DNA of 64,000 nt, from assembly GCF_056712565.1 (NCBI RefSeq), contig NZ_CM160072.1, one strand, 5' to 3'. This document shows positions 8,762 to 63,109 of the stretch, in pieces. Numbering within the stretch: position 1 is the stretch's first letter; each line of letters begins with the position of its first letter. The position numbers and the translations under genes were made by a program. The notes under the pieces were generated by a model that worked only from the letters and a program-made list of their open reading frames with translations, did no database searches and was not told where the DNA came from.

Positions 8762-9409
8762 ATGATTGGTCCTGAATATGTCGTAGTTGTTGGCGTGCTT
8801 AATGCAGGTTTGGTTAGTTTTTTAGGAACAGGTTTTTTTATTTCTAAGGATAAAATAATTACTTCCCGCCATGTTATTAATGGGTTTTCTTCTAACTTAG
8901 TTATTTCTCCATCTAATATAAATAACTTTAATAGTTATCAGGATACAAGTGTTGATAAATTTCAATGTATTGGAGTTGATGTTATTGATGAAGATCCAAT
9001 AAAAGACTTATGTGTGTTAAAAATTAAAAATGCACCTGTTTATGAACCTTGCCTAAAAATTGCTACTCTTGACGATGTTAATGTCGGTGAAGATGTGGGT
9101 ATTTTAGGTTTCCCACATTGTAATGAAAATAGAAAAGTATTGACATTTCAAACGGCAAAAATAGGTGCAAAAGTTTTACTTTCAAGCAGTAATATTCAAT
9201 CTAAACATGCCGTTATAAATATCCAAACCAGACCTGGTCAATCGGGATCGATTGTATTTAATTTAAAAAATGACTCGGTAATAGGCGTCTTGGTTGGCGC
9301 TTATGCAAATAATTCTGGAGGTTCTGTTTTGGTTGGAGGTATTAATCCAGCTGAACTACATCAGACAACTTATGCGGTTTCTGCAGAATATGTTAAGGAT
9401 ATGTTATGA
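8762..9409 (+). CDS. Trypsin-fold (S1/chymotrypsin-like) serine protease, 215 aa; accessory cargo
   Basis: Catalytic triad contexts in order His (ITSRHVING), Asp (DLCVLKI), Ser (RPGQSGSIVF); GGAG RBS; very AT-rich; track ORF 5' extension to 8624 would cross cos. Confidence 0.8.
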   Translation: MIGPEYVVVVGVLNAGLVSFLGTGFFISKDKIITSRHVINGFSSNLVISPSNINNFNSYQDTSVDKFQCIGVDVIDEDPIKDLCVLKIKNAPVYEPCLKIATLDDVNVGEDVGILGFPHCNENRKVLTFQTAKIGAKVLLSSSNIQSKHAVINIQTRPGQSGSIVFNLKNDSVIGVLVGAYANNSGGSVLVGGINPAELHQTTYAVSAEYVKDML

Positions 9410-9852
9410 TTGCTATACCAAATGAAGATGCTGAGTCTTGGTTGTCCACTTTAAAAACGTATCAATCTTCATCTGTCAGGAATTTTCTCGAAAATGGCGA
9501 TGAAGAAAAGGCTCTTGAGCTATGGCTAACTGCATCTGGCCCAAGTTCAGTTGCTCAATTTGGCGGTGATAATTCAAAAATGCCGGGAAGAAAAGCGTTT
9601 GTTGAGCAGTTTAAATTAGAGTTTAAGGCTTTTGTATGTGGAGGTGATAAATATGCAGAGGAGAGGGAATGTTTAGGAGCACTGACTGGTGATGTTAAAA
9701 CATACTTTGTAGGGGTGATCTCTTCGGCAATTGCGGGTTCTTTGGGGGCAACAGCAACATTTATTGCTCCAGCTGTAGTAATTATGTTGATAGCTGTCTC
9801 AAAAATGGGAATTAATGCTTGGTGTTCATTAGAGACAACGACAGAATCTTAG
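9406..9852 (+). CDS. Small protein (148 aa) with C-terminal hydrophobic membrane anchor; partner of the protease
   Basis: ATGA start/stop overlap with protease gene (translational coupling); C-terminal segment YFVGVISSAIAGSLGATATFIAPAVVIMLIAVS is hydrophobic. Confidence 0.7.
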   Translation: MIAIPNEDAESWLSTLKTYQSSSVRNFLENGDEEKALELWLTASGPSSVAQFGGDNSKMPGRKAFVEQFKLEFKAFVCGGDKYAEERECLGALTGDVKTYFVGVISSAIAGSLGATATFIAPAVVIMLIAVSKMGINAWCSLETTTES

Positions 9853-10906: not shown

Positions 10907-12630
10907 AAAATCTCCACAATATTACTGGTATTGGCGGACTCGCCCTGCAGTGGTTCGTTAAACAGTGCGTGCATTGTTGCCCAGGCCAGATCGGCGTGGC
11001 TGGCTTCTTCGCTGCGGCTGGCTTCATAGGTCGGGCGGTTGCCGCTGGCGGTGGTTGCGCGACGGATTGCCATGAATGACTGCGCAATGTCGGTGTGTCC
11101 GGCGTCAAACTCCAGACGGCGGTGGCTGATAATGTCGTAGGCCTTGAGTACCAGGGCGTTTTTAACGTTGGGGTTGTAGACAAACTCCCGGACGGCAGGA
11201 AAGAACGCTTTCACGTTCTCATAAACCCCGTGACCGACACCTGTCGAGTCGATGCCGATATATGTCACGTTGTACTGTTCGGTCAGTTTTTTGATGGCGT
11301 CCGCCTGGGCGCGGAAGTCCATCCCGCGCCACTGGTGACGCTCAAGAATACGGAACTTACCGCCCGGCACGGCTGGCGGAGCCACCACCACGCATCCGGC
11401 ACTGTCGCCGTTCTGCGTACCTTTTGCCGGGTCATAACCGATCCACACTTCGCGCCAGCCAAACGGGCGCAGCGCCAGTGCATGAAAGTCGGTCCAGACT
11501 TCCCAGCTGTCCACCATGCACGCCTGCAATTCGCTGAGCGGGAACACAGATGCGAGATCGTCAACGAACTCGCACATCAGCAGGTTCTGGTATTCGTCCG
11601 GGCTGTACTCCATGCGCAACTGGTCGAGGTCGAACAGGTTACAGCCGCCGCGTACCGCATCTTCCACGGTGACTATCTGGCGGTATTGCCCGTCTGCGCA
11701 CAGCAGGCCGGGGGCCAGATTGCTGTGGGACAGGTCGATGTCCACCTTATCGGCTTTGTTGCGCCCACGGTTGAACAACGCGCCGGACCAGAACGGATAA
11801 GCACTGTGGGTCAGGCTGGATGGCGTGGAAAAATAGGTCTGTCGCCATTTCTTGTGAATAGCCATACCGGAAGCCACTTTGCGCAGCTCCTGAAATTTTG
11901 GTATCCAGAAATATTCATCCAGATACAGGTTGCCGTGATAACTCTGGGCCGTGCGGGCATTGGTGCCTAGGAAGTAAAGCGTGGCCCCGTTAGGAAGCAC
12001 CATCGGATCGCCTTTCAGCTCCACCTCCACTTCTTTGGCGAAGTCGATGATGTACTGCTTAAAGACGTGGGCCTGTGCCTTACTGGCGGAAAGGAAAATC
12101 TGGTTACGCCCGGTAAGCAGAGCGTCAATCAGGGCTTCACGGGCAAAGTAAAAGGTTGCGCCGATCTGGCGTGACTTCAGCAGGTTGCGGATGCGGTTGT
12201 TTTTTCCGGCTTCCCACCAGTGGCGCTGGTAGTTGAACATGGAGGAATGGAAGATTTCTTCCAGCTTCTCAATCTGTTCATCGGTGAAAACGTTCTTTTC
12301 CGGCTGACGGCGCGGGCCTTTGTTGCGGTTGGCGACGTTAGGGTTTAAGTCGGCTTCGTTGCCGCCATTGTTAAACTTGCCGATCCGCGCATGGCGCTCC
12401 GACTGGCGCGCCAGCAGGTCAATCTCTTTGAAATCTTTCCCTTCTTTGTGCTCCTTCATAATGAGCTGGCAGTAGCGTGCGGCGGTGGTGAGCTGCATCT
12501 GATCCAGCGGCCCATAGTCACCCCACTTGTCGCGTTTTTTCCAGCTGTTCCAGTAAGTTTTTTCTAACGGAGCACGGCTCATGACAGTGAAAGCAAAGCG
12601 TTTTCGCATCGGGGTGGAAGGTGCCACCAC
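10903..12630 (-). CDS. P: Terminase large (ATPase) subunit gpP; true start probably downstream of 12630
   Basis: 575-aa ORF following Q; ATPase motifs; 5' end overlaps the divergent capsid ORF so start is uncertain. Confidence 0.85.
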   Translation of the reverse strand: MVAPSTPMRKRFAFTVMSRAPLEKTYWNSWKKRDKWGDYGPLDQMQLTTAARYCQLIMKEHKEGKDFKEIDLLARQSERHARIGKFNNGGNEADLNPNVANRNKGPRRQPEKNVFTDEQIEKLEEIFHSSMFNYQRHWWEAGKNNRIRNLLKSRQIGATFYFAREALIDALLTGRNQIFLSASKAQAHVFKQYIIDFAKEVEVELKGDPMVLPNGATLYFLGTNARTAQSYHGNLYLDEYFWIPKFQELRKVASGMAIHKKWRQTYFSTPSSLTHSAYPFWSGALFNRGRNKADKVDIDLSHSNLAPGLLCADGQYRQIVTVEDAVRGGCNLFDLDQLRMEYSPDEYQNLLMCEFVDDLASVFPLSELQACMVDSWEVWTDFHALALRPFGWREVWIGYDPAKGTQNGDSAGCVVVAPPAVPGGKFRILERHQWRGMDFRAQADAIKKLTEQYNVTYIGIDSTGVGHGVYENVKAFFPAVREFVYNPNVKNALVLKAYDIISHRRLEFDAGHTDIAQSFMAIRRATTASGNRPTYEASRSEEASHADLAWATMHALFNEPLQGESANTSNIVEIF

Positions 12631-13930
12631 CGACGGACGCGAAATCCAGCGTGAATGGCTGGAACAGATGGCAGCCAGCTACAACCCGGCGGTGTATACC
12701 GCGCTGATTAACCTTGAGCACATCAAGTCTTATATACCGGACAGCACCTTTAACCGCTACGGCAAGGTGACGGCGCTGTTTGCTGAAGAAATCACGGAAG
12801 GTCCGCTGGCAGGCAAGATGGCGCTGTATGCCGACGTTGAGCCAACGGAGTCCCTGGTGGAACTGGTGAAAAAAGGCCAGAAATTATTCACCTCTATGGA
12901 AGTCAGCCCGAAGTTCGCTGATACGGGCAAAGCCTACCTGGTCGGCCTGGCTGCCACTGATGACCCTGCCAGTCTGGGTACGGAAATGCTGACATTCAGC
13001 GCCAGTGCAGCCCATAACCCGCTGGCAAACCGCAAGCAGAATCCTGCCATGACTGAGCAGTCCGGTCAGCTGCTGGGGCTGGGTGTTGGCAGCACCATTG
13101 CCGGAACCACTGACACCACCGCAAAAGAGCGTGAACCTGTCGATCCGACGCTGATGGTCGATGTGGAATATAAATGCGAGCAGACCAACTTTGACACGGT
13201 GCTGACCTACGCGAAGCTGGACCTGTGGGCGAAGTTTCAGGATTTCCAGGTGCGTATCCGTGACGCCATCGTGAAACGTCAGGCACTGGACCGCATCATG
13301 ATCGGCTTTAACGGCGTGAAGCGTGCGAAAACCTCCAACCGTAGTGAAAACCCGCTGCTGCAGGATGTGAACAAAGGCTGGCTGCAGAAAATCCGTGAGG
13401 ATGCACCGGATCACGTCATGGGCAGCACCACCACGGGCGGCGAAACCACACCGGGTGCGGTGAAAGTCGGTAAAGGGGGCGAATATGCCAACTTGGACGC
13501 TGTGGTGATGGATGCGGTCAATGAGCTTATCGACGTGGTCTACCAGGACGATGACGATCTGGTGGTGATTTGCGGTCGTGAACTGCTGTCTGACAAGTAT
13601 TTCCCGCTGGTCAACAAAGAGCAGGAAAACAGTGAAAAATTGGCAGCCGATATGATTATCAGTCAGAAACGCATGGGCGGTCTGCAGGCCGTGCGTGCGC
13701 CGTTCTTCCCGCCGAATGCGCTGCTGATCACCCGTCTGGATAACCTGTCCATCTACTGGCAGGAAGACACCCGCCGCCGTTCAGTTATCGACAACCCGAA
13801 ACGTGACCGGATTGAAAACTTTGAATCCGTTAACGAAGCCTATGTGGTTGAGGACTACCGCTGCGCCGCACTGGTGGAAAACATCCAGATTGGTGATTTC
13901 AGCGCCGCCGCAGCCGAAACCGGAGCGTAA
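12581..13930 (+). CDS. Capsid protein with N-terminal gpO-like scaffold/protease region and C-terminal gpN-like major-capsid region in one 449-aa ORF
   Basis: N-terminus FRIGVEGATTDGR resembles P2 gpO start as I recall it; C-terminal half LITRLDNLSIYWQE...DNPKRDRIENFES...VVEDY resembles P2 gpN; single uninterrupted frame. Confidence 0.75.
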   Translation: MTVKAKRFRIGVEGATTDGREIQREWLEQMAASYNPAVYTALINLEHIKSYIPDSTFNRYGKVTALFAEEITEGPLAGKMALYADVEPTESLVELVKKGQKLFTSMEVSPKFADTGKAYLVGLAATDDPASLGTEMLTFSASAAHNPLANRKQNPAMTEQSGQLLGLGVGSTIAGTTDTTAKEREPVDPTLMVDVEYKCEQTNFDTVLTYAKLDLWAKFQDFQVRIRDAIVKRQALDRIMIGFNGVKRAKTSNRSENPLLQDVNKGWLQKIREDAPDHVMGSTTTGGETTPGAVKVGKGGEYANLDAVVMDAVNELIDVVYQDDDDLVVICGRELLSDKYFPLVNKEQENSEKLAADMIISQKRMGGLQAVRAPFFPPNALLITRLDNLSIYWQEDTRRRSVIDNPKRDRIENFESVNEAYVVEDYRCAALVENIQIGDFSAAAAETGA

Positions 13931-16996: not shown

Positions 16997-17390
16997 GGCG
17001 GTGCCTTATGTCCGCAATAACCCGGACAAACTGCATCTGTTTGTGGATAACGGTTCGCTGGTTGCCACGGGGGCCAGCTCCATGTCATGGGAGTACCGCT
17101 ACACCCTGAACGTGGTGATTGAGGATTTCAGCGGCGACCAGAATCTGCTGATGGCCCCGGTTTTGCTGTGGCTGCGGGATAACCAGCCCGATGCCATCAA
17201 TAATCCGGCGTTACGGGAAAAGTTATTCACCTTTGAGGTGGATATTCTGCGCAACGATGTCTGTGATATCAGCCTTAACCTGCAACTGACGGAGCGTGTG
17301 CTGGTCAGCACTGACGGCAGTGTGTCGAGCGTTGAAGCTATAGCGGAACCTGATGAACCTGAAGAAATGTGGACGGTGAAACGTGGCTGA
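16938..17390 (+). CDS. R: Tail completion protein gpR (start uncertain, TTG 16938 or GTG 16959)
   Basis: KPQSLRHALNKAV resembles P2 gpR N-terminus; synteny. Confidence 0.7.
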   Translation: MRVRSETVNKPQSLRHALNKAVPYVRNNPDKLHLFVDNGSLVATGASSMSWEYRYTLNVVIEDFSGDQNLLMAPVLLWLRDNQPDAINNPALREKLFTFEVDILRNDVCDISLNLQLTERVLVSTDGSVSSVEAIAEPDEPEEMWTVKRG

Positions 17391-17820
17391 ACTGCAGAAG
17401 GTGGATGAGTGGCTGGCGGCCTTGCTGGCGAATCTGGAGCCTGCCACACGCCAGCGTATGATGCGGGAACTGGCGCAGGAGTTGCGCCGCAATCAGCAGA
17501 AGAATATCAGGCTGCAGCTTAACCCTGATGGCAGCGGCTTTGAGCCGCGCCGGGTAGCAGCCCGCAGTAAGAAGGGGCGCATCAAACGCCAGATGTTCGC
17601 CAAATTGCGCACTAATAAATACCTGAAAACTGCCGCCACAGCGGATTATGCCTGCGTGTATTTTGATGGAAAAGTCCAGCGCATCGCCTGTGTACACCAC
17701 TATGGACTGCGTGACCGTGTTAGTCGAAGAGGTTTAAAAGTACAGTACCCTGAGAGAAGGCTTTTAGGATTTACTAAGGATATTAGTAACTTGAACTTGG
17801 GTGTTTACTTAAAACGCTAA
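17383..17820 (+). CDS. S: Tail completion protein gpS; last ~20 codons run into AT-rich cargo DNA
   Basis: Synteny after R; 3' end from about 17760 is AT-rich and continuous with the cargo island. Confidence 0.75.
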   Translation: MAELQKVDEWLAALLANLEPATRQRMMRELAQELRRNQQKNIRLQLNPDGSGFEPRRVAARSKKGRIKRQMFAKLRTNKYLKTAATADYACVYFDGKVQRIACVHHYGLRDRVSRRGLKVQYPERRLLGFTKDISNLNLGVYLKR

Positions 17821-17909
17821 AGTAAATAGTGGGTTAAGAGAATTAGTGGAGGGAGACTTTATCGTTCTACATAAGATACCTTGCTTGAATATACTATAAA
17901 GCTCTTTTT

Positions 17910-17938
17910 TTGAGATTAATCTTGTTGTACTTTAATGT
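17910..17938 (+). promoter_or_regulatory. Putative sigma70 promoter for the OLD-like gene
   Basis: TTGAGA - 17 bp - TAATGT upstream of ATG 17966. Confidence 0.3.
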
Positions 17939-17965
17939 CTTCACCTCACTAATGGAGCTAATTTT

Positions 17966-19924
17966 ATGATAGTAGGGATTTTTTTAAGGTATTTTAAAAC
18001 ATACAACGGAAATCATTACATACCGTTATCTTCTGGAAGTCAGTTTTGTGGAATTGTTGGTAACAATGGAATTGGCAAAAGTTCTGTTCTTGAGGCTTTA
18101 GATTCGTTTATTAATAACAAACCATGGAATATTAATTCTTCATTTAAAAGAACCTCCAGTGACAGACCTTCTCCACATATTGTTCCTTTATATCTTATAA
18201 AGCGAGAGGAATTACATGAAGATCATCATGCTAAAGCTGAAATCTTAACGCAATTAGTATTAGAATATAGCAATAGTAATGCTGATGTTACATTGACGCC
18301 AACAACACGAAATATAATTAATACGTTTTTTGAACATATTAACAAATTAAAAAGAAATTTAAATCTCCAAGATTATTTTTTGATCCCTCTGGGTGTCGAG
18401 AAAGATGGTGATGTAAGTATTTCGATTCTTAATGGGAAGAGTTTATGTCGACTTTTGGAGGTTGATAATCCCGATAATAAAGTTTCGAGCGAGTTGCTTA
18501 GTAAGCACTTTGGGTATTTATTACATCATGTCCGCCATAAGTATGAATATATATATATTCCAAAGGATATAGACTCTGAATCGTTTACGAAGCTAGAAAC
18601 AAGTGAAGTACAAAAGTTGATGGGTGAGTCTTTAGAGCAGATAATTAAAGATAGAATATCTGATAGAACCATAAGTCAAATCAATACAGGGCTTGCCAAA
18701 TTTCTGGATGGTGTTGAAGAGGAGCTTGAAGAATATGGTTATAGAACATCTGGCGAGAGACAATCGCGATTAAAAAAGAAAGATGTTTATAATTTGATTA
18801 TCGAAGCATTCTTCAAAGTTAGGAAATTAAATAAAAAGCAGAATTCAGGTTGGATTGAAATTAGCTCGCTAAGTTCAGGGGAGAAGCAACGTGCAATAAT
18901 GGATATTGCATATGGGTTTCTTACCAATCATAGAGAAAATGGCGATAATCTGATTATTGGAATTGATGAGCCAGAATGTTCTCTTCATATGTCTGCATGT
19001 TTTGAACAATTTGAAAAGCTCTATTCTATTAGTGGTATATGTGAACAATTAATATTTACTTCACATTGGTATGGCTATCTTCCAACCGTCGAAAATGGAT
19101 GTACCACAACTATCCTTAAAACAGATTCAACTCATCATTTTGAATTATATGATCTTGCCAGTTATAGAGAAGAAGTCAGGAAGAAAGTAAAAACCTCTTC
19201 CCCGGGTATGCCATTTGATATAAAAATAAAAAGTGTAAATGACCTTATACAATCCATAATATCTAGCTGTTTGGCTGAGAAACCTTACAATTGGTTGATT
19301 TGTGAGGGTACTACAGAAAAAATATATCTTTCGCATTATCTAAAGGACTTGGTAGAAAATAAAAGGCTAAGGATTGTGCCTGTAGGGGGAGCTAGTGAAG
19401 TTAAAAAAATATTTAAGCATTTAGAAGCTTCTTATGAAGAGTTCAAAAAAGACCTCAAAGGAAAAGTGTTCTTACTAACCGATACAGATTCAGAGTTGGT
19501 GTCATATGATACCCCAGTTATGCCGCATGTTGTTTGTAAGCGAATTGTTAGTGTAGGTGATTCAGTGAAGTTGGTTGATATTTCTTCCAATCCAGTTTCT
19601 CCTGCAACAGAAATAGAGGATTGTCTTAATCCTGTATCGTTTATAGAGGCTTTAACATCATTTTCTTCACGTTTTCCTGAGCTTCAGGCATTGCTGCCTA
19701 ATAGTAATGTTATGATAGATGAAAGACATTCATCGTTTGCTGCGATGGATTTGTCACCCAAGAACAAAAAAACGCTTGATGCTTTTTTTGACCGTGAAGG
19801 AATTAAGTTTGATTTTTCAAAGGAATATATTTCAATCTGTGAGCGAAATGAGCGGAAAAGGCCAGAGTGGATTGCCAAAATTGAAAATTTTTTTATAAGT
19901 GATAAACCTGTAAAGTTTAATTGA
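17966..19924 (+). CDS. OLD-family ATP-dependent nuclease (ABC ATPase + TOPRIM), 652 aa; accessory defence-type cargo
   Basis: Walker A GNNGIGKSS, ABC signature LSSGEKQ, Walker B LIIGIDEPE, H-loop FTSHW; C-terminal TOPRIM-like WLICEGTTE and LLTDTDSE; same motif layout as host YbjD in this window; AT-rich. Confidence 0.85.
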   Translation: MIVGIFLRYFKTYNGNHYIPLSSGSQFCGIVGNNGIGKSSVLEALDSFINNKPWNINSSFKRTSSDRPSPHIVPLYLIKREELHEDHHAKAEILTQLVLEYSNSNADVTLTPTTRNIINTFFEHINKLKRNLNLQDYFLIPLGVEKDGDVSISILNGKSLCRLLEVDNPDNKVSSELLSKHFGYLLHHVRHKYEYIYIPKDIDSESFTKLETSEVQKLMGESLEQIIKDRISDRTISQINTGLAKFLDGVEEELEEYGYRTSGERQSRLKKKDVYNLIIEAFFKVRKLNKKQNSGWIEISSLSSGEKQRAIMDIAYGFLTNHRENGDNLIIGIDEPECSLHMSACFEQFEKLYSISGICEQLIFTSHWYGYLPTVENGCTTTILKTDSTHHFELYDLASYREEVRKKVKTSSPGMPFDIKIKSVNDLIQSIISSCLAEKPYNWLICEGTTEKIYLSHYLKDLVENKRLRIVPVGGASEVKKIFKHLEASYEEFKKDLKGKVFLLTDTDSELVSYDTPVMPHVVCKRIVSVGDSVKLVDISSNPVSPATEIEDCLNPVSFIEALTSFSSRFPELQALLPNSNVMIDERHSSFAAMDLSPKNKKTLDAFFDREGIKFDFSKEYISICERNERKRPEWIAKIENFFISDKPVKFN

Positions 19925-19931
19925 TAAATGG

Positions 19932-19951
19932 TCGCAGGGGAAACCCTGCGA
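19932..19951 (+). terminator. Terminator-like hairpin after OLD-like gene
   Basis: TCGCAGGG-GAAA-CCCTGCGA (GNRA-type loop) 8 bp after the stop; weak T-tract. Confidence 0.45.
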
Positions 19952-19958
19952 TATTCTA

Positions 19959-20006
19959 CTAACCTCTAACCTCTAACCTCTAACCTCTAACCTCTAACCT
20001 CTAACC
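19959..20006. repeat. Heptanucleotide tandem repeat (CTAACCT) x ~6.9
   Basis: Six perfect CTAACCT units plus CTAACC read directly from the sequence; intergenic between cargo gene and V promoter. Confidence 0.95.
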
Positions 20007-20034
20007 AGAGGGTTTATTTCTTTTCAAAGAAAAT

Positions 20035-20052
20035 TGTATCTTCTTTTATACA
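20035..20052 (+). promoter_or_regulatory. Putative Ogr-dependent late promoter element upstream of V
   Basis: TGT-N12-ACA dyad (TGTatcttcttttatACA), the conserved activator site of P2 late promoters; P2 has a late promoter before V. Confidence 0.5.
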
Positions 20053-20099
20053 AAATAAGCTGTTTGAAGAGGTTGTGTAAAGCATGGAAAAATAATCTT

Positions 20100-20678
20100 A
20101 TGAATACACAACTCACAGAAATCATGCGCCTTATCACCAACCTGATCCGCACAGGGGTAGTCACTGAAGTGGACAAGGAAAACTGGCTTTGTCGGGTGAA
20201 AACGGGCGACCTTGAAACCAACTGGATTAACTGGCTGACGCTGCGCGCGGGTAATGCCCGCACATGGTGGCGACCATCGGAAGGTGAGCAGGTGGTGCTG
20301 CTGAGTCTGGGAGGAAATCTGGAAACCGCCTTTGCGCTGCCCGCTGTCTATTCGAATCAGTTCGCACCACCGTCGACGTCGGCGGAAGCCTGCGTGACAG
20401 AACATCCTGACGGTGGCTGGTTTGAATACGAACCAGCCACCGGGCGCTGGTATGTCAGGGGCATCAAATCCATGGTCATTGAGGCTGCTGACAACATCAC
20501 CCTGAAAACCAGAGAGTTTGTGCTGGAGGCTGACCGCACGCGTATTAACAGCGAAGTAGTGATCAATGGTGGTGTTACCCAGGGCGGCGGTGCAATGAGT
20601 TCTAACGGAATTGTGGTTGATGCACATCAGCATACTGGCGTCCTGAAAGGCGGCGACACAACCGGAGGCCCGGTATGA
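20100..20678 (+). CDS. V: Baseplate spike protein gpV
   Basis: N-terminus and WWRPSEGEQV region resemble P2 gpV; synteny. Confidence 0.85.
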   Translation: MNTQLTEIMRLITNLIRTGVVTEVDKENWLCRVKTGDLETNWINWLTLRAGNARTWWRPSEGEQVVLLSLGGNLETAFALPAVYSNQFAPPSTSAEACVTEHPDGGWFEYEPATGRWYVRGIKSMVIEAADNITLKTREFVLEADRTRINSEVVINGGVTQGGGAMSSNGIVVDAHQHTGVLKGGDTTGGPV

Positions 20679-61450: not shown

Positions 61451-63109
61451 ATGATTCTTGAGCGCGTTGAAATTGTGGGTTTTCGCGGTATCAACCGTTT
61501 GTCGTTGATGCTGGAACAAAACAACGTCCTGATTGGGGAGAACGCGTGGGGTAAATCCAGCTTGCTGGACGCCTTAACCCTGCTGCTATCGCCAGAATCA
61601 GATCTCTACCATTTTGAGCGCGATGATTTCTGGTTCCCGCCGGGAGATATCAACGGGCGAGAACATCATCTGCATATTATTTTGACCTTCCGCGAATCGC
61701 TGCCAGGCCGACATCGGGTTCGCCGCTATCGGCCGCTGGTAGCGTGCTGGACGCCATGCACCGATGGTTATCACCGTATTTTTTATCGTCTGGAAGGGGA
61801 GAGTGCGGAAGACGGCAGCGTGATGACACTGCGCAGTTTTCTCGATAAAGACGGACATCCGATTGATGTTGAGGATATTAACGATCAGGCTCGTCATCTG
61901 GTGCGTTTAATGCCGGTGCTGCGCTTGCGTGATGCCCGTTTTATGCGCCGTATTCGTAACGGCACGGTGCCAAATGTCCCCAATGTGGAAGTCACCGCGC
62001 GCCAGCTCGATTTCCTCGCCCGTGAATTATCCTCACATCCGCAAAATCTCTCTGATGGGCAGATTCGTCAGGGACTTTCCGCAATGGTGCAACTTCTTGA
62101 GCATTATTTTTCTGAGCAGGGAGCTGGACAGGCGCGATATCGTTTAATGCGGCGGCGAGCCAGCAATGAGCAACGAAGCTGGCGCTATCTGGATATCATC
62201 AACCGGATGATTGACCGACCTGGAGGGCGCTCGTATCGGGTTATTTTGCTCGGCCTGTTTGCTACTTTATTGCAGGCAAAAGGCACATTGCGACTGGATA
62301 AAGACGCCCGTCCATTGTTGCTGATCGAAGATCCAGAAACCCGTTTACACCCCATTATGCTTTCAGTTGCCTGGCATCTGTTGAATCTTCTGCCATTGCA
62401 GCGCATTGCCACCACCAACTCTGGCGAGCTGCTTTCGTTAACGCCGGTAGAGCATGTTTGCCGACTGGTACGTGAGTCCTCGCGCGTTGCCGCCTGGCGT
62501 CTGGGACCGAGTGGCTTGAGTACCGAAGATAGCCGACGCATCTCCTTTCACATTCGTTTTAACCGTCCGTCATCGCTGTTTGCCCGCTGTTGGCTGCTGG
62601 TGGAAGGGGAAACGGAAACCTGGGTTATCAATGAACTGGCGCGTCAGTGCGGACATCATTTTGATGCCGAAGGGATCAAGGTCATTGAGTTTGCCCAGTC
62701 CGGACTAAAGCCACTGGTTAAATTTGCCCGGCGAATGGGGATTGAATGGCATGTACTGGTCGATGGCGATGAAGCAGGGAAGAAATATGCCGCTACGGTA
62801 CGCAGCCTGTTGAATAACGATCGGGAAGCCGAACGAGAACATTTAACGGCGTTACCGGCGCTGGATATGGAACATTTTATGTATCGCCAGGGATTTTCCG
62901 ATGTGTTCCACCGCGTGGCTCAAATCCCGGAAAATATACCGATGAATCTGCGCAAAGTTATCTCGAAAGCGATCCATCGCTCTTCCAAACCCGATCTTGC
63001 CATTGAAGTGGCAATGGAGGCCGGACGTCGTGGTGTGGACTCCGTACCGACGCTGCTGAAAAAAATGTTCTCACGCGTGCTGTGGCTGGCGCGCGGTCGG
63101 GCCGACTAA
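61451..63109 (+). CDS. ybjD: YbjD, OLD-family ATPase/TOPRIM protein (host core gene)
   Basis: Walker A GENAWGKSS, Walker B LLLIEDPE, TOPRIM-like LLVEGETE and LVDGDEAGKK. Confidence 0.9.
   Translation: MILERVEIVGFRGINRLSLMLEQNNVLIGENAWGKSSLLDALTLLLSPESDLYHFERDDFWFPPGDINGREHHLHIILTFRESLPGRHRVRRYRPLVACWTPCTDGYHRIFYRLEGESAEDGSVMTLRSFLDKDGHPIDVEDINDQARHLVRLMPVLRLRDARFMRRIRNGTVPNVPNVEVTARQLDFLARELSSHPQNLSDGQIRQGLSAMVQLLEHYFSEQGAGQARYRLMRRRASNEQRSWRYLDIINRMIDRPGGRSYRVILLGLFATLLQAKGTLRLDKDARPLLLIEDPETRLHPIMLSVAWHLLNLLPLQRIATTNSGELLSLTPVEHVCRLVRESSRVAAWRLGPSGLSTEDSRRISFHIRFNRPSSLFARCWLLVEGETETWVINELARQCGHHFDAEGIKVIEFAQSGLKPLVKFARRMGIEWHVLVDGDEAGKKYAATVRSLLNNDREAEREHLTALPALDMEHFMYRQGFSDVFHRVAQIPENIPMNLRKVISKAIHRSSKPDLAIEVAMEAGRRGVDSVPTLLKKMFSRVLWLARGRAD

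Follow-up and report, generated by a model that had tools for sequence, protein, structure and literature searches.

Nucleases of the OLD family are sorted into classes by gene context (PMC10568477, PMC12392090). Class 1 comprises single genes without a conserved partner, Class 2 enzymes are encoded beside a UvrD-like helicase, Class 3 enzymes beside a reverse transcriptase and a non-coding RNA, and Class 4, the PARIS systems, have an AriB-type TOPRIM (PMC10568477, PMC12392090); surveys of Class 1 have used a length window of 500-600 amino acids (PMC12392090). P2 Old forms an inactive tetramer, which opens into dimers, and its cleavage target is tRNA-Thr(UGU) (PMC12445682; 10.64898/2026.07.10.737580), AriB cleaves tRNA-Lys (PMC11464382), and the Toprim domain of retron-Eco2 is an RNase (PMC12405507); Vc OLD nicks DNA (PMC12392090), and GajA and TsOLD cut it (PMC10568477). 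Among single-gene OLD nucleases only P2 Old and Vc OLD have been shown to defend against phages, and general defence by lone OLD proteins is a listed open question (PMC10568477). Here we describe a further candidate, found in a stretch of 64,000 nucleotides from contig NZ_CM160072.1 (the window). Apart from the differences noted below, the window nearly matches the chromosome sequence of Escherichia coli SF-468, a blood isolate, and it holds a P2/186-type prophage between rcdA and ybjL. Between the tail genes S and V of this prophage lies an AT-rich island with one cargo gene (17966..19924, + strand, ATG start), whose 652-residue product, WP_000635034.1, is annotated as 'AAA family ATPase'.

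We read this product as a single-chain OLD-family nuclease of a distinct clade, carried as a 'moron' in the slot that orf30 occupies in P2 and serving most likely in anti-phage defence, and we give this statement as a whole a probability of roughly 0.6. One part of it stands considerably firmer, in that the cargo is very likely a single-gene OLD-family ATPase-TOPRIM. The analysis directly supports the identity of the domains, the intactness of the catalytic motifs, the single-gene organisation, the horizontal mobility and the location in a hotspot. The cargo gene represents a distinct and so far uncharacterised clade, but the kind of system is a known one.

Domain architecture of the cargo protein

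The first-pass annotation had reported a 652-residue open reading frame (ORF) in the AT-rich S-V island with a full set of ABC-ATPase motifs, and this was borne out: all of the motifs are present and are conserved in 40 homologues (full-length, 640-662 amino acids, 47-91% identity). Walker A (GNNGIGKS, residues 32-39; 18059-18082), the signature (LSSGEKQ, residues 302-308; 18869-18889), Walker B (18953-18976, with IDEPE at residues 333-337) and the H-loop (FTSHW, residues 364-368; 19055-19069), all on the + strand, lie in an ABC-type ATPase domain that extends from residue 1 to ~395 (17966..19150, +) on the basis of these motifs, structural matches and Pfam AAA_15 (residues 7-367, 2e-17). In the 40-sequence alignment the ATPase residues G32..K38-S39, L302-S-S-G-E-K-Q308, D334-E335 and H367 are invariant.

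A C-terminal TOPRIM-like region had also been proposed, and Pfam OLD-like_TOPRIM (residues 443-508, 2e-5) identifies it as such, with the catalytic residues present on alignment. The nuclease domain, delimited by Pfam, motif alignment and fold matches, covers residues ~440-555 (19283..19630, +) and includes ICEGTTE (residues 445-451) and LLTDTDSE (503-510). Its motifs are E447/G448/E451 (19304-19318, +), D506-T-D508 (19481-19489, +) and E549-I-E551 (19610-19618, +); E447, G448, T507, D508, E549 and E551 are invariant among the homologues, and E451 and D506 are at least 90% conserved. Of the 40 family members, 28 match OLD-like_TOPRIM at E<=1e-3, and every one does so at E<=0.1. The sequence thereby combines the two features by which the OLD family is recognised, an N-terminal ABC ATPase motif set and a C-terminal TOPRIM with extra acidic residues for a second metal. 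The remaining C-terminal region (residues ~556-652; 19631..19921, +) is conserved in the family and helical, with helices at residues 556-644 in the AlphaFold2 (AF2) model.

The full-length AF2 model (predicted local distance difference test, pLDDT, 79) has as its best Foldseek matches the retron-Eco8 OLD nuclease and GajA (E 5e-13). Retron-Eco8 OLD, a Class 3 protein, is the best full-length match, at a sequence identity to retron effectors of 13-15%. The ATPase domain matches SMC, Rad50 and OLD heads, and contains a helical insertion at residues ~85-300, with pLDDT <50 over 257-299. A reading that has to be weighed against these matches is that of a DNA-repair or chromosome-maintenance ATPase of the SMC/RecF type, whose C-terminal domain would be degenerate and non-catalytic, and the possibility that SMC/RecF proteins rather than OLD proteins would prove the closest homologues had been raised in the first-pass annotation. 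They did not: OLD nucleases rank first in Foldseek, with more residues aligned, and the SMC-type matches are confined to the ABC head, in a protein that has no SMC-length coiled-coil arm. The acidic residues of the TOPRIM are invariant across homologues of 47-91% identity, and the gene is patchy in distribution, AT-rich and mobile. We regard the SMC/RecF-like reading as extremely unlikely.

The C-terminal domain was also modelled in isolation (pLDDT 86), and its best fold match is the retron-Eco2 RT-Toprim (Foldseek E 1e-3), with AriB at E 0.07 and the Thermus scotoductus OLD protein (6P74) a weak match at E 0.23. In sequence, a profile of this domain (residues 396-652, 257 residues) found only a chance match among PDB sequences, to a dynein light chain (E 0.46), and the domain has no sequence match in the solved OLD structures; sequence and profile searches of PDB chains that included the ATPase returned weak AriA and SMC matches only. 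The PADLOC matches of the C-terminal half are likewise weak, to RT-Toprim_I-C (on the TOPRIM core), AbiLii, PDC-M38B and HEC-01B. No NCBIfam family scores above its cut-off for the cargo protein, and its PHROG matches are of unknown function.

Comparison with described OLD systems

The first-pass annotation had offered two alternatives, a single-gene Class 1 OLD-like system or a fused PARIS-like one, and it is the first that stands. We examined seven neighbourhoods of the family. Two are the S-V slot of P2-like prophages, in E. coli and in Cronobacter, and two are integrase islands, one in Halopseudomonas and one, with a SIR2 protein alongside, in Atlantibacter; the others are a phn/mscS gap (Pantoea), an Rhs/HigB region (Enterobacter) and a site adjoining aconitase (Sulfurimonas). 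The seven have no neighbour gene in common, and because no partner gene is shared the cargo protein is Class-1-like by context; in length, at 652 residues in a family of ~625-710, it lies outside the 500-600 band of that class. A further mark of Class 1 is a dimerisation domain inserted in the ATPase; the insertion seen in the cargo model is helical and in part of low confidence. Unlike Class 2 (Gabija), there is no gajB-like helicase beside the cargo gene or beside any homologue examined, and GajA models match the Walker A region only. The absence of an adjacent GajB-like helicase had been noted correctly, the flanking genes being S and V and none lying within the island. Unlike Class 3, neither a reverse transcriptase gene nor a non-coding RNA is found near the cargo gene, and none stands beside the homologues examined.

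A fused PARIS system would unite AriA and AriB in a single chain (Class 4 OLD); it would respond to anti-restriction proteins such as Ocr and cleave tRNA-Lys. The likeness to PARIS lies in the logic of ABC ATPase plus TOPRIM, which is often phage- or satellite-borne, and fusions of ariA and ariB into one gene are known (PMC9122126). Among the folds near the cargo C-terminal domain AriB is a weak match, the fifth-best, and AriA tops the sequence matches to solved structures, weakly and over the Walker B region only (E 0.01-0.03). The best PADLOC match of the whole protein is also named AriA (1e-21, nearly end to end); this was first taken as support for PARIS and then dropped as generic. The AriA model PDLC02979 (373 positions, residues 10-367) is comparable to Pfam AAA_15 (374 positions), and PDLC02980 (304 positions, residues 29-367) to AAA_21 (304 positions), and since coordinates and model lengths reproduce these two Pfam families the 'AriA' matches are uninformative. 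The fused AriAB model, PDLC02981, is matched over residues 295-341 only (7e-9), with no full-length match, and no AriB model appears among the PADLOC matches of the C-terminal half. DUF4435, the family of AriB, is found in 0 of the 40 members, compared with OLD-like_TOPRIM in all of them at E<=0.1, and is absent from the Pfam list of the cargo protein to E<=10. A fused PARIS is, on this evidence, very improbable.

P2 Old (AAD03309.1, 586 amino acids, Class 1; sequence taken from AF063097) resembles the cargo protein in being a single ABC ATPase-TOPRIM chain, encoded by a non-essential, AT-rich cargo gene of a P2-type phage. The alignment to P2 Old that had been suggested as a check supports the relationship: hhalign of the family profile gave a probability of 89% (E 2e-6) over 222 columns, an unbroken stretch that starts at the signature, takes in Walker B and the H-loop and reaches the TOPRIM glutamate (CEGTTE in one, VEGKTE in the other) and the next strand. 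Beyond this point the correspondence is at the level of motifs, with LTDTD, LADCD and LVDGD as the DxD motif of the cargo protein, P2 Old and the host protein YbjD, and TEIE and LDME as the E-x-E motif of the cargo protein and YbjD; when the hhalign alignment of the C-terminal profile with P2 Old and with YbjD was forced to extend further, the result as a whole was not significant (E 0.06-0.07). The homology is remote, the cargo protein is 66 residues longer, and its gene occupies the S-V (orf30) slot, whereas P2 old lies in the old/tin slot between A and Q. The trigger of P2 Old and its tRNA-Thr target are not to be transferred to the cargo protein by assumption (PMC12445682; 10.64898/2026.07.10.737580).

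The window contains a second gene of the family, the core chromosomal gene ybjD (61451..63106), to which the same motif architecture had been ascribed. Matches to the GajA model (2e-79) and the Old model (2e-24) place YbjD in the OLD family; it has the ATPase-TOPRIM architecture of the cargo protein, and its EGETE, DGD and LDME are equivalent to CEGTTE, DTD and TEIE. The similarity is, however, one of architecture, and in sequence it is at the level of Walker A only; the strong match to the GajA model belongs to YbjD and not to the cargo protein. The cargo protein belongs to a separate, uncharacterised clade of ~650-residue OLD proteins.

The orf30 slot and the distribution of the family

The island is about 2.37 kb long (17733..20099, unstranded), as defined by the limits of DNA homology and a drop in G+C content. 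In an alignment with three other P2-like prophages, P2-like DNA homology stops at ~17732, in the 3' end of the tail completion gene S (17383..17820, +; annotated 'phage virion morphogenesis protein'), and returns exactly at the ATG of the baseplate assembly gene V at 20100, which forms the right boundary (20100..20678, +; annotated 'phage baseplate assembly protein V'). The G+C fraction over 17600-20200 is 0.32-0.37, compared with 0.53-0.60 in both flanks, a drop of ~0.2. The ~29 codons at the end of S (17733-17820, +) are AT-rich and specific to this island, and the ~29 C-terminal residues that they encode are distinct in each cargo variant compared, the 'empty' variant included; because this tail changes with the cargo, the recombination junctions of the hotspot lie inside an essential tail gene. 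The intergenic parts of the island contain no further ORF of >=20 amino acids and no helicase or reverse transcriptase gene, and a scan against Rfam gave a chance-level match only and no RNA family, which makes this a one-gene island.

In P2 the O-operon terminator comes after S; beyond it lie the non-essential orf30, on the opposite strand, and then the activator site and the start of the V operon. The island takes the position of orf30, which in P2 is flanked by the O-operon terminator and the pV promoter. The first-pass annotation was right to place the gene at S-V rather than at the canonical old locus, but this location is not the oddity it was taken for, because across E. coli the occupancy of the orf30 slot varies. 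Of 51 E. coli S-V junctions sampled at even spacing, 33 have an empty slot (a 999-nt span) and 18 an occupied one, with at least six other cargo types that include DUF6216 (7), a TIR-domain protein (2), a P-loop NTPase (1) and several hypothetical proteins. Conserved flanks, variable content and deviant base composition, the marks of a moron hotspot, are all present, and late-gene hotspots of P2 have been reported to carry defence systems (10.64898/2026.02.27.708500). The S-V slot is a minor hotspot of this known type. DUF6216, its commonest cargo, also occurs in derivatives of E. coli B, C43(DE3) for example. The TIR-domain protein and the P-loop NTPase, the latter encoded by a gene of ~2 kb, are of types typical of defence genes, and their presence at the S-V site is more evidence for the orf30 slot as a small defence-type hotspot. 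PADLOC gave no match for P2 orf30 or for slot cargos of 307 and 219 amino acids.

The homologues of the cargo protein come from Enterobacterales, Halopseudomonas, Stutzerimonas, Kushneria and Sulfurimonas. The C-terminal profile, searched against 1.84 billion representative proteins, matched 363 at E<=1e-3; full-length matches are 625-710 amino acids long with the domain at ~390-650, and the shorter ones look like fragments, with a few split genes possible. The C-terminal domain was thus found only within this ~650-residue family, where ~363 clusters at 50% identity carry it. Of 5,426 complete genomes of E. coli, 1,049 have the S-V flanks and 13 the island, from isolates of blood, cerebrospinal fluid, avian and canine origin. 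Twelve of the 13 copies are intact, with at most one amino acid change. The remaining copy, in APEC 16-1068, has a 1-nt deletion at nucleotide 403 of the gene that divides it into two annotated ORFs, and is either a pseudogene or the product of a sequencing error.

The prophage in the window differs from that of SF-468, to which the window is otherwise 100% identical, in three places. At 12548/12549, 231 nt are missing, which removes the 5' end of the terminase gene P and most of the P-O intergenic region, the site of the divergent pP/pO late promoters in P2. At ~13046-13049, ~554 nt are missing, comprising the 3' part of the scaffold gene O and the 5' part of the capsid gene N, and a fused ORF of 449 amino acids is left (12581..13930). 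Both deletions are absent from the eight best-matching complete genomes listed. As the two deletions affect P, O, N and the P-O promoter region, the prophage looks defective; the cargo gene is still intact. The third difference is an inversion of the tail-fibre segment 23572-25367, beside a recombinase (invertase) gene, which fits a host-range switch that is active or was so recently. The same prophage also carries a two-gene candidate defence system, PADLOC PDC-M35, in its old/tin hotspot between A and Q, made up of an S1-family peptidase, PDC-M35A (8762..9409, PADLOC E 4.5e-94), and a 148-residue partner, PDC-M35B (9406..9852, PADLOC E 4e-58).

Expression and proposed function

The signals around the cargo gene bear on when it would be expressed. 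The first-pass annotation had given it a promoter-like element of its own, and a promoter is not supported: the only upstream consensus match, at 17866-17895, agrees at 9 of 12 positions, and such matches occur at chance frequency (9 found, 9.6 expected in shuffled sequence). Manual candidates, TTGAGA-17-TAATGT and TTTAAT, are weak, and we claim no promoter from them. Conservation between the E. coli island and that of Cronobacter is far stronger over the ~80 nt before the ATG (conserved 5' region, 17884..17965, +), the start of which is overlapped by the promoter-like match, than over the preceding ~60 nt (17820-17880), and this suggests a functional leader or promoter. A Shine-Dalgarno GGAG (17954-17957, +) lies 8 nt before the ATG. 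No terminator-like site was detected between the stop of S at 17820 and the cargo ATG at 17966, unlike P2, so that late O-operon read-through into the cargo gene is possible.

Downstream, the hairpin that had been described as a terminator is real, and it is one of two (fold z = -3.6). A GC-rich 9-bp hairpin with a GAAA loop begins 7 nt past the stop codon (19931..19952, +) and is kept in the Cronobacter island; it is followed by a 7-nt tandem repeat, CTAACCT (19959..20006, unstranded; 6.9 copies at 100% match by Tandem Repeats Finder), and by a terminator-like 5-bp hairpin with a T-rich tail, located by the fold and hairpin scan (19998..20024, +). The CTAACCT repeat between the cargo hairpin and the V promoter has 5, 6, 7 or 9 full copies across E. 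coli strains, and in the Cronobacter island a different repeat, (CTCTGC) present ~17 times, takes the same place. A TGT-N12-ACA dyad (20035..20052, +), which we take to be the Ogr/Delta activator consensus, is centred ~56 nt before the V ATG, the distance of the annotated P2 pV activator site, and is kept in Cronobacter. From its position and this conservation it is likely an Ogr/Delta-type activator site of the pV late promoter.

What we infer beyond the sequence is the role in defence, its trigger, the substrate and the expression in the lysogen. Anti-phage defence of the prophage by nucleic-acid cleavage appears the most likely function because the catalytic residues are intact, 12 of the 13 E. 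coli copies are undamaged and the distribution is mobile and hotspot-borne. In that role the cargo protein would guard its lysogen from infection by other phages. If it works as characterised OLD proteins do, its ABC head may serve as sensor and switch through ATP binding or hydrolysis and a change of oligomeric state, and the TOPRIM would cut nucleic acid by two-metal catalysis involving E447/E451, D506/D508 and E549/E551; cleavage would stop the infection, probably by abortive infection. As to the substrate, we lean slightly towards RNA or tRNA rather than DNA, because the modelled C-terminal domain folds nearest to the retron-Eco2 Toprim and then to AriB; P2 Old, too, is a tRNA-cleaving enzyme. 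The stand-alone Class 1 proteins TsOLD and Vc OLD, by comparison, act on DNA, by cutting or nicking it.

Several observations weigh against this account. PADLOC has no defence-specific model that matches the protein end to end, its Old model covering residues 319-487 only (2e-11) and the rest being generic ATPase. A near-identity DNA search and a protein tblastn search of 50,697 phage records gave no match. Several homologues lie in ordinary chromosomal gaps and not in defence islands, and some ATPases of the OLD family, archaeal Cran1 among them, serve functions other than defence (PMC12796447). The preference for RNA-cutting Toprim folds is weak, at TM-scores of 0.2-0.4. WP_000635034.1 is mentioned in none of the papers searched, and neither the protein nor any close relative has an experimental record; the gene is not described in Vassallo 2022 or in the P2 hotspot papers. 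Finally, the gene is co-directional with the late operons and has no convincing promoter, and could be a late lytic gene.

This last point leads to a different account, in which the cargo gene is part of the late O operon and benefits the phage during lytic growth, for example as a nuclease against host or competitor nucleic acids or satellites, instead of defending the lysogen. The orientation with S and V fits such a role, the other slot cargos, P2 orf30 among them, being on the opposite strand; so does the arrangement of terminators, with no such site over 17820-17966 and two hairpins after the gene, where the O-operon terminator of P2 comes directly after S, and so does promoter evidence at chance level. 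However, close homologues are lone chromosomal genes outside prophages, and because they exist outside any prophage the protein needs no lytic-cycle context. The conserved ~80 nt before the ATG are consistent with an own promoter or leader, and the cargo gene is intact in a window from which the pP/pO late-promoter region has been deleted. We consider a late lytic role unlikely, and retain anti-phage defence of the lysogen as the preferred reading.

Within this reading, a more specific and decidedly tentative proposal is that the ~650-residue family forms a separate, unnamed class of single-chain OLD proteins, in which a divergent TOPRIM joined to the helical module would be RNA-directed, as in retron-Eco2 and AriB, and the protein would act alone in abortive infection, as a tRNase or RNase that responds to a trigger of its own; we hold this to be possible, though doubtful. 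The clade is widespread, strongly conserved and mobile, and it is not named by current tools (NCBI, NCBIfam, PADLOC); the 500-600 residue filter of the published Class 1 phylogeny would have left the family of the cargo protein out. The gene is a compact, one-gene defence candidate in a clinically relevant E. coli lineage. If the proposal of a separate class is correct, a lone bacterial or prophage OLD protein from outside the clades of P2 Old and Vc OLD would suffice for defence.

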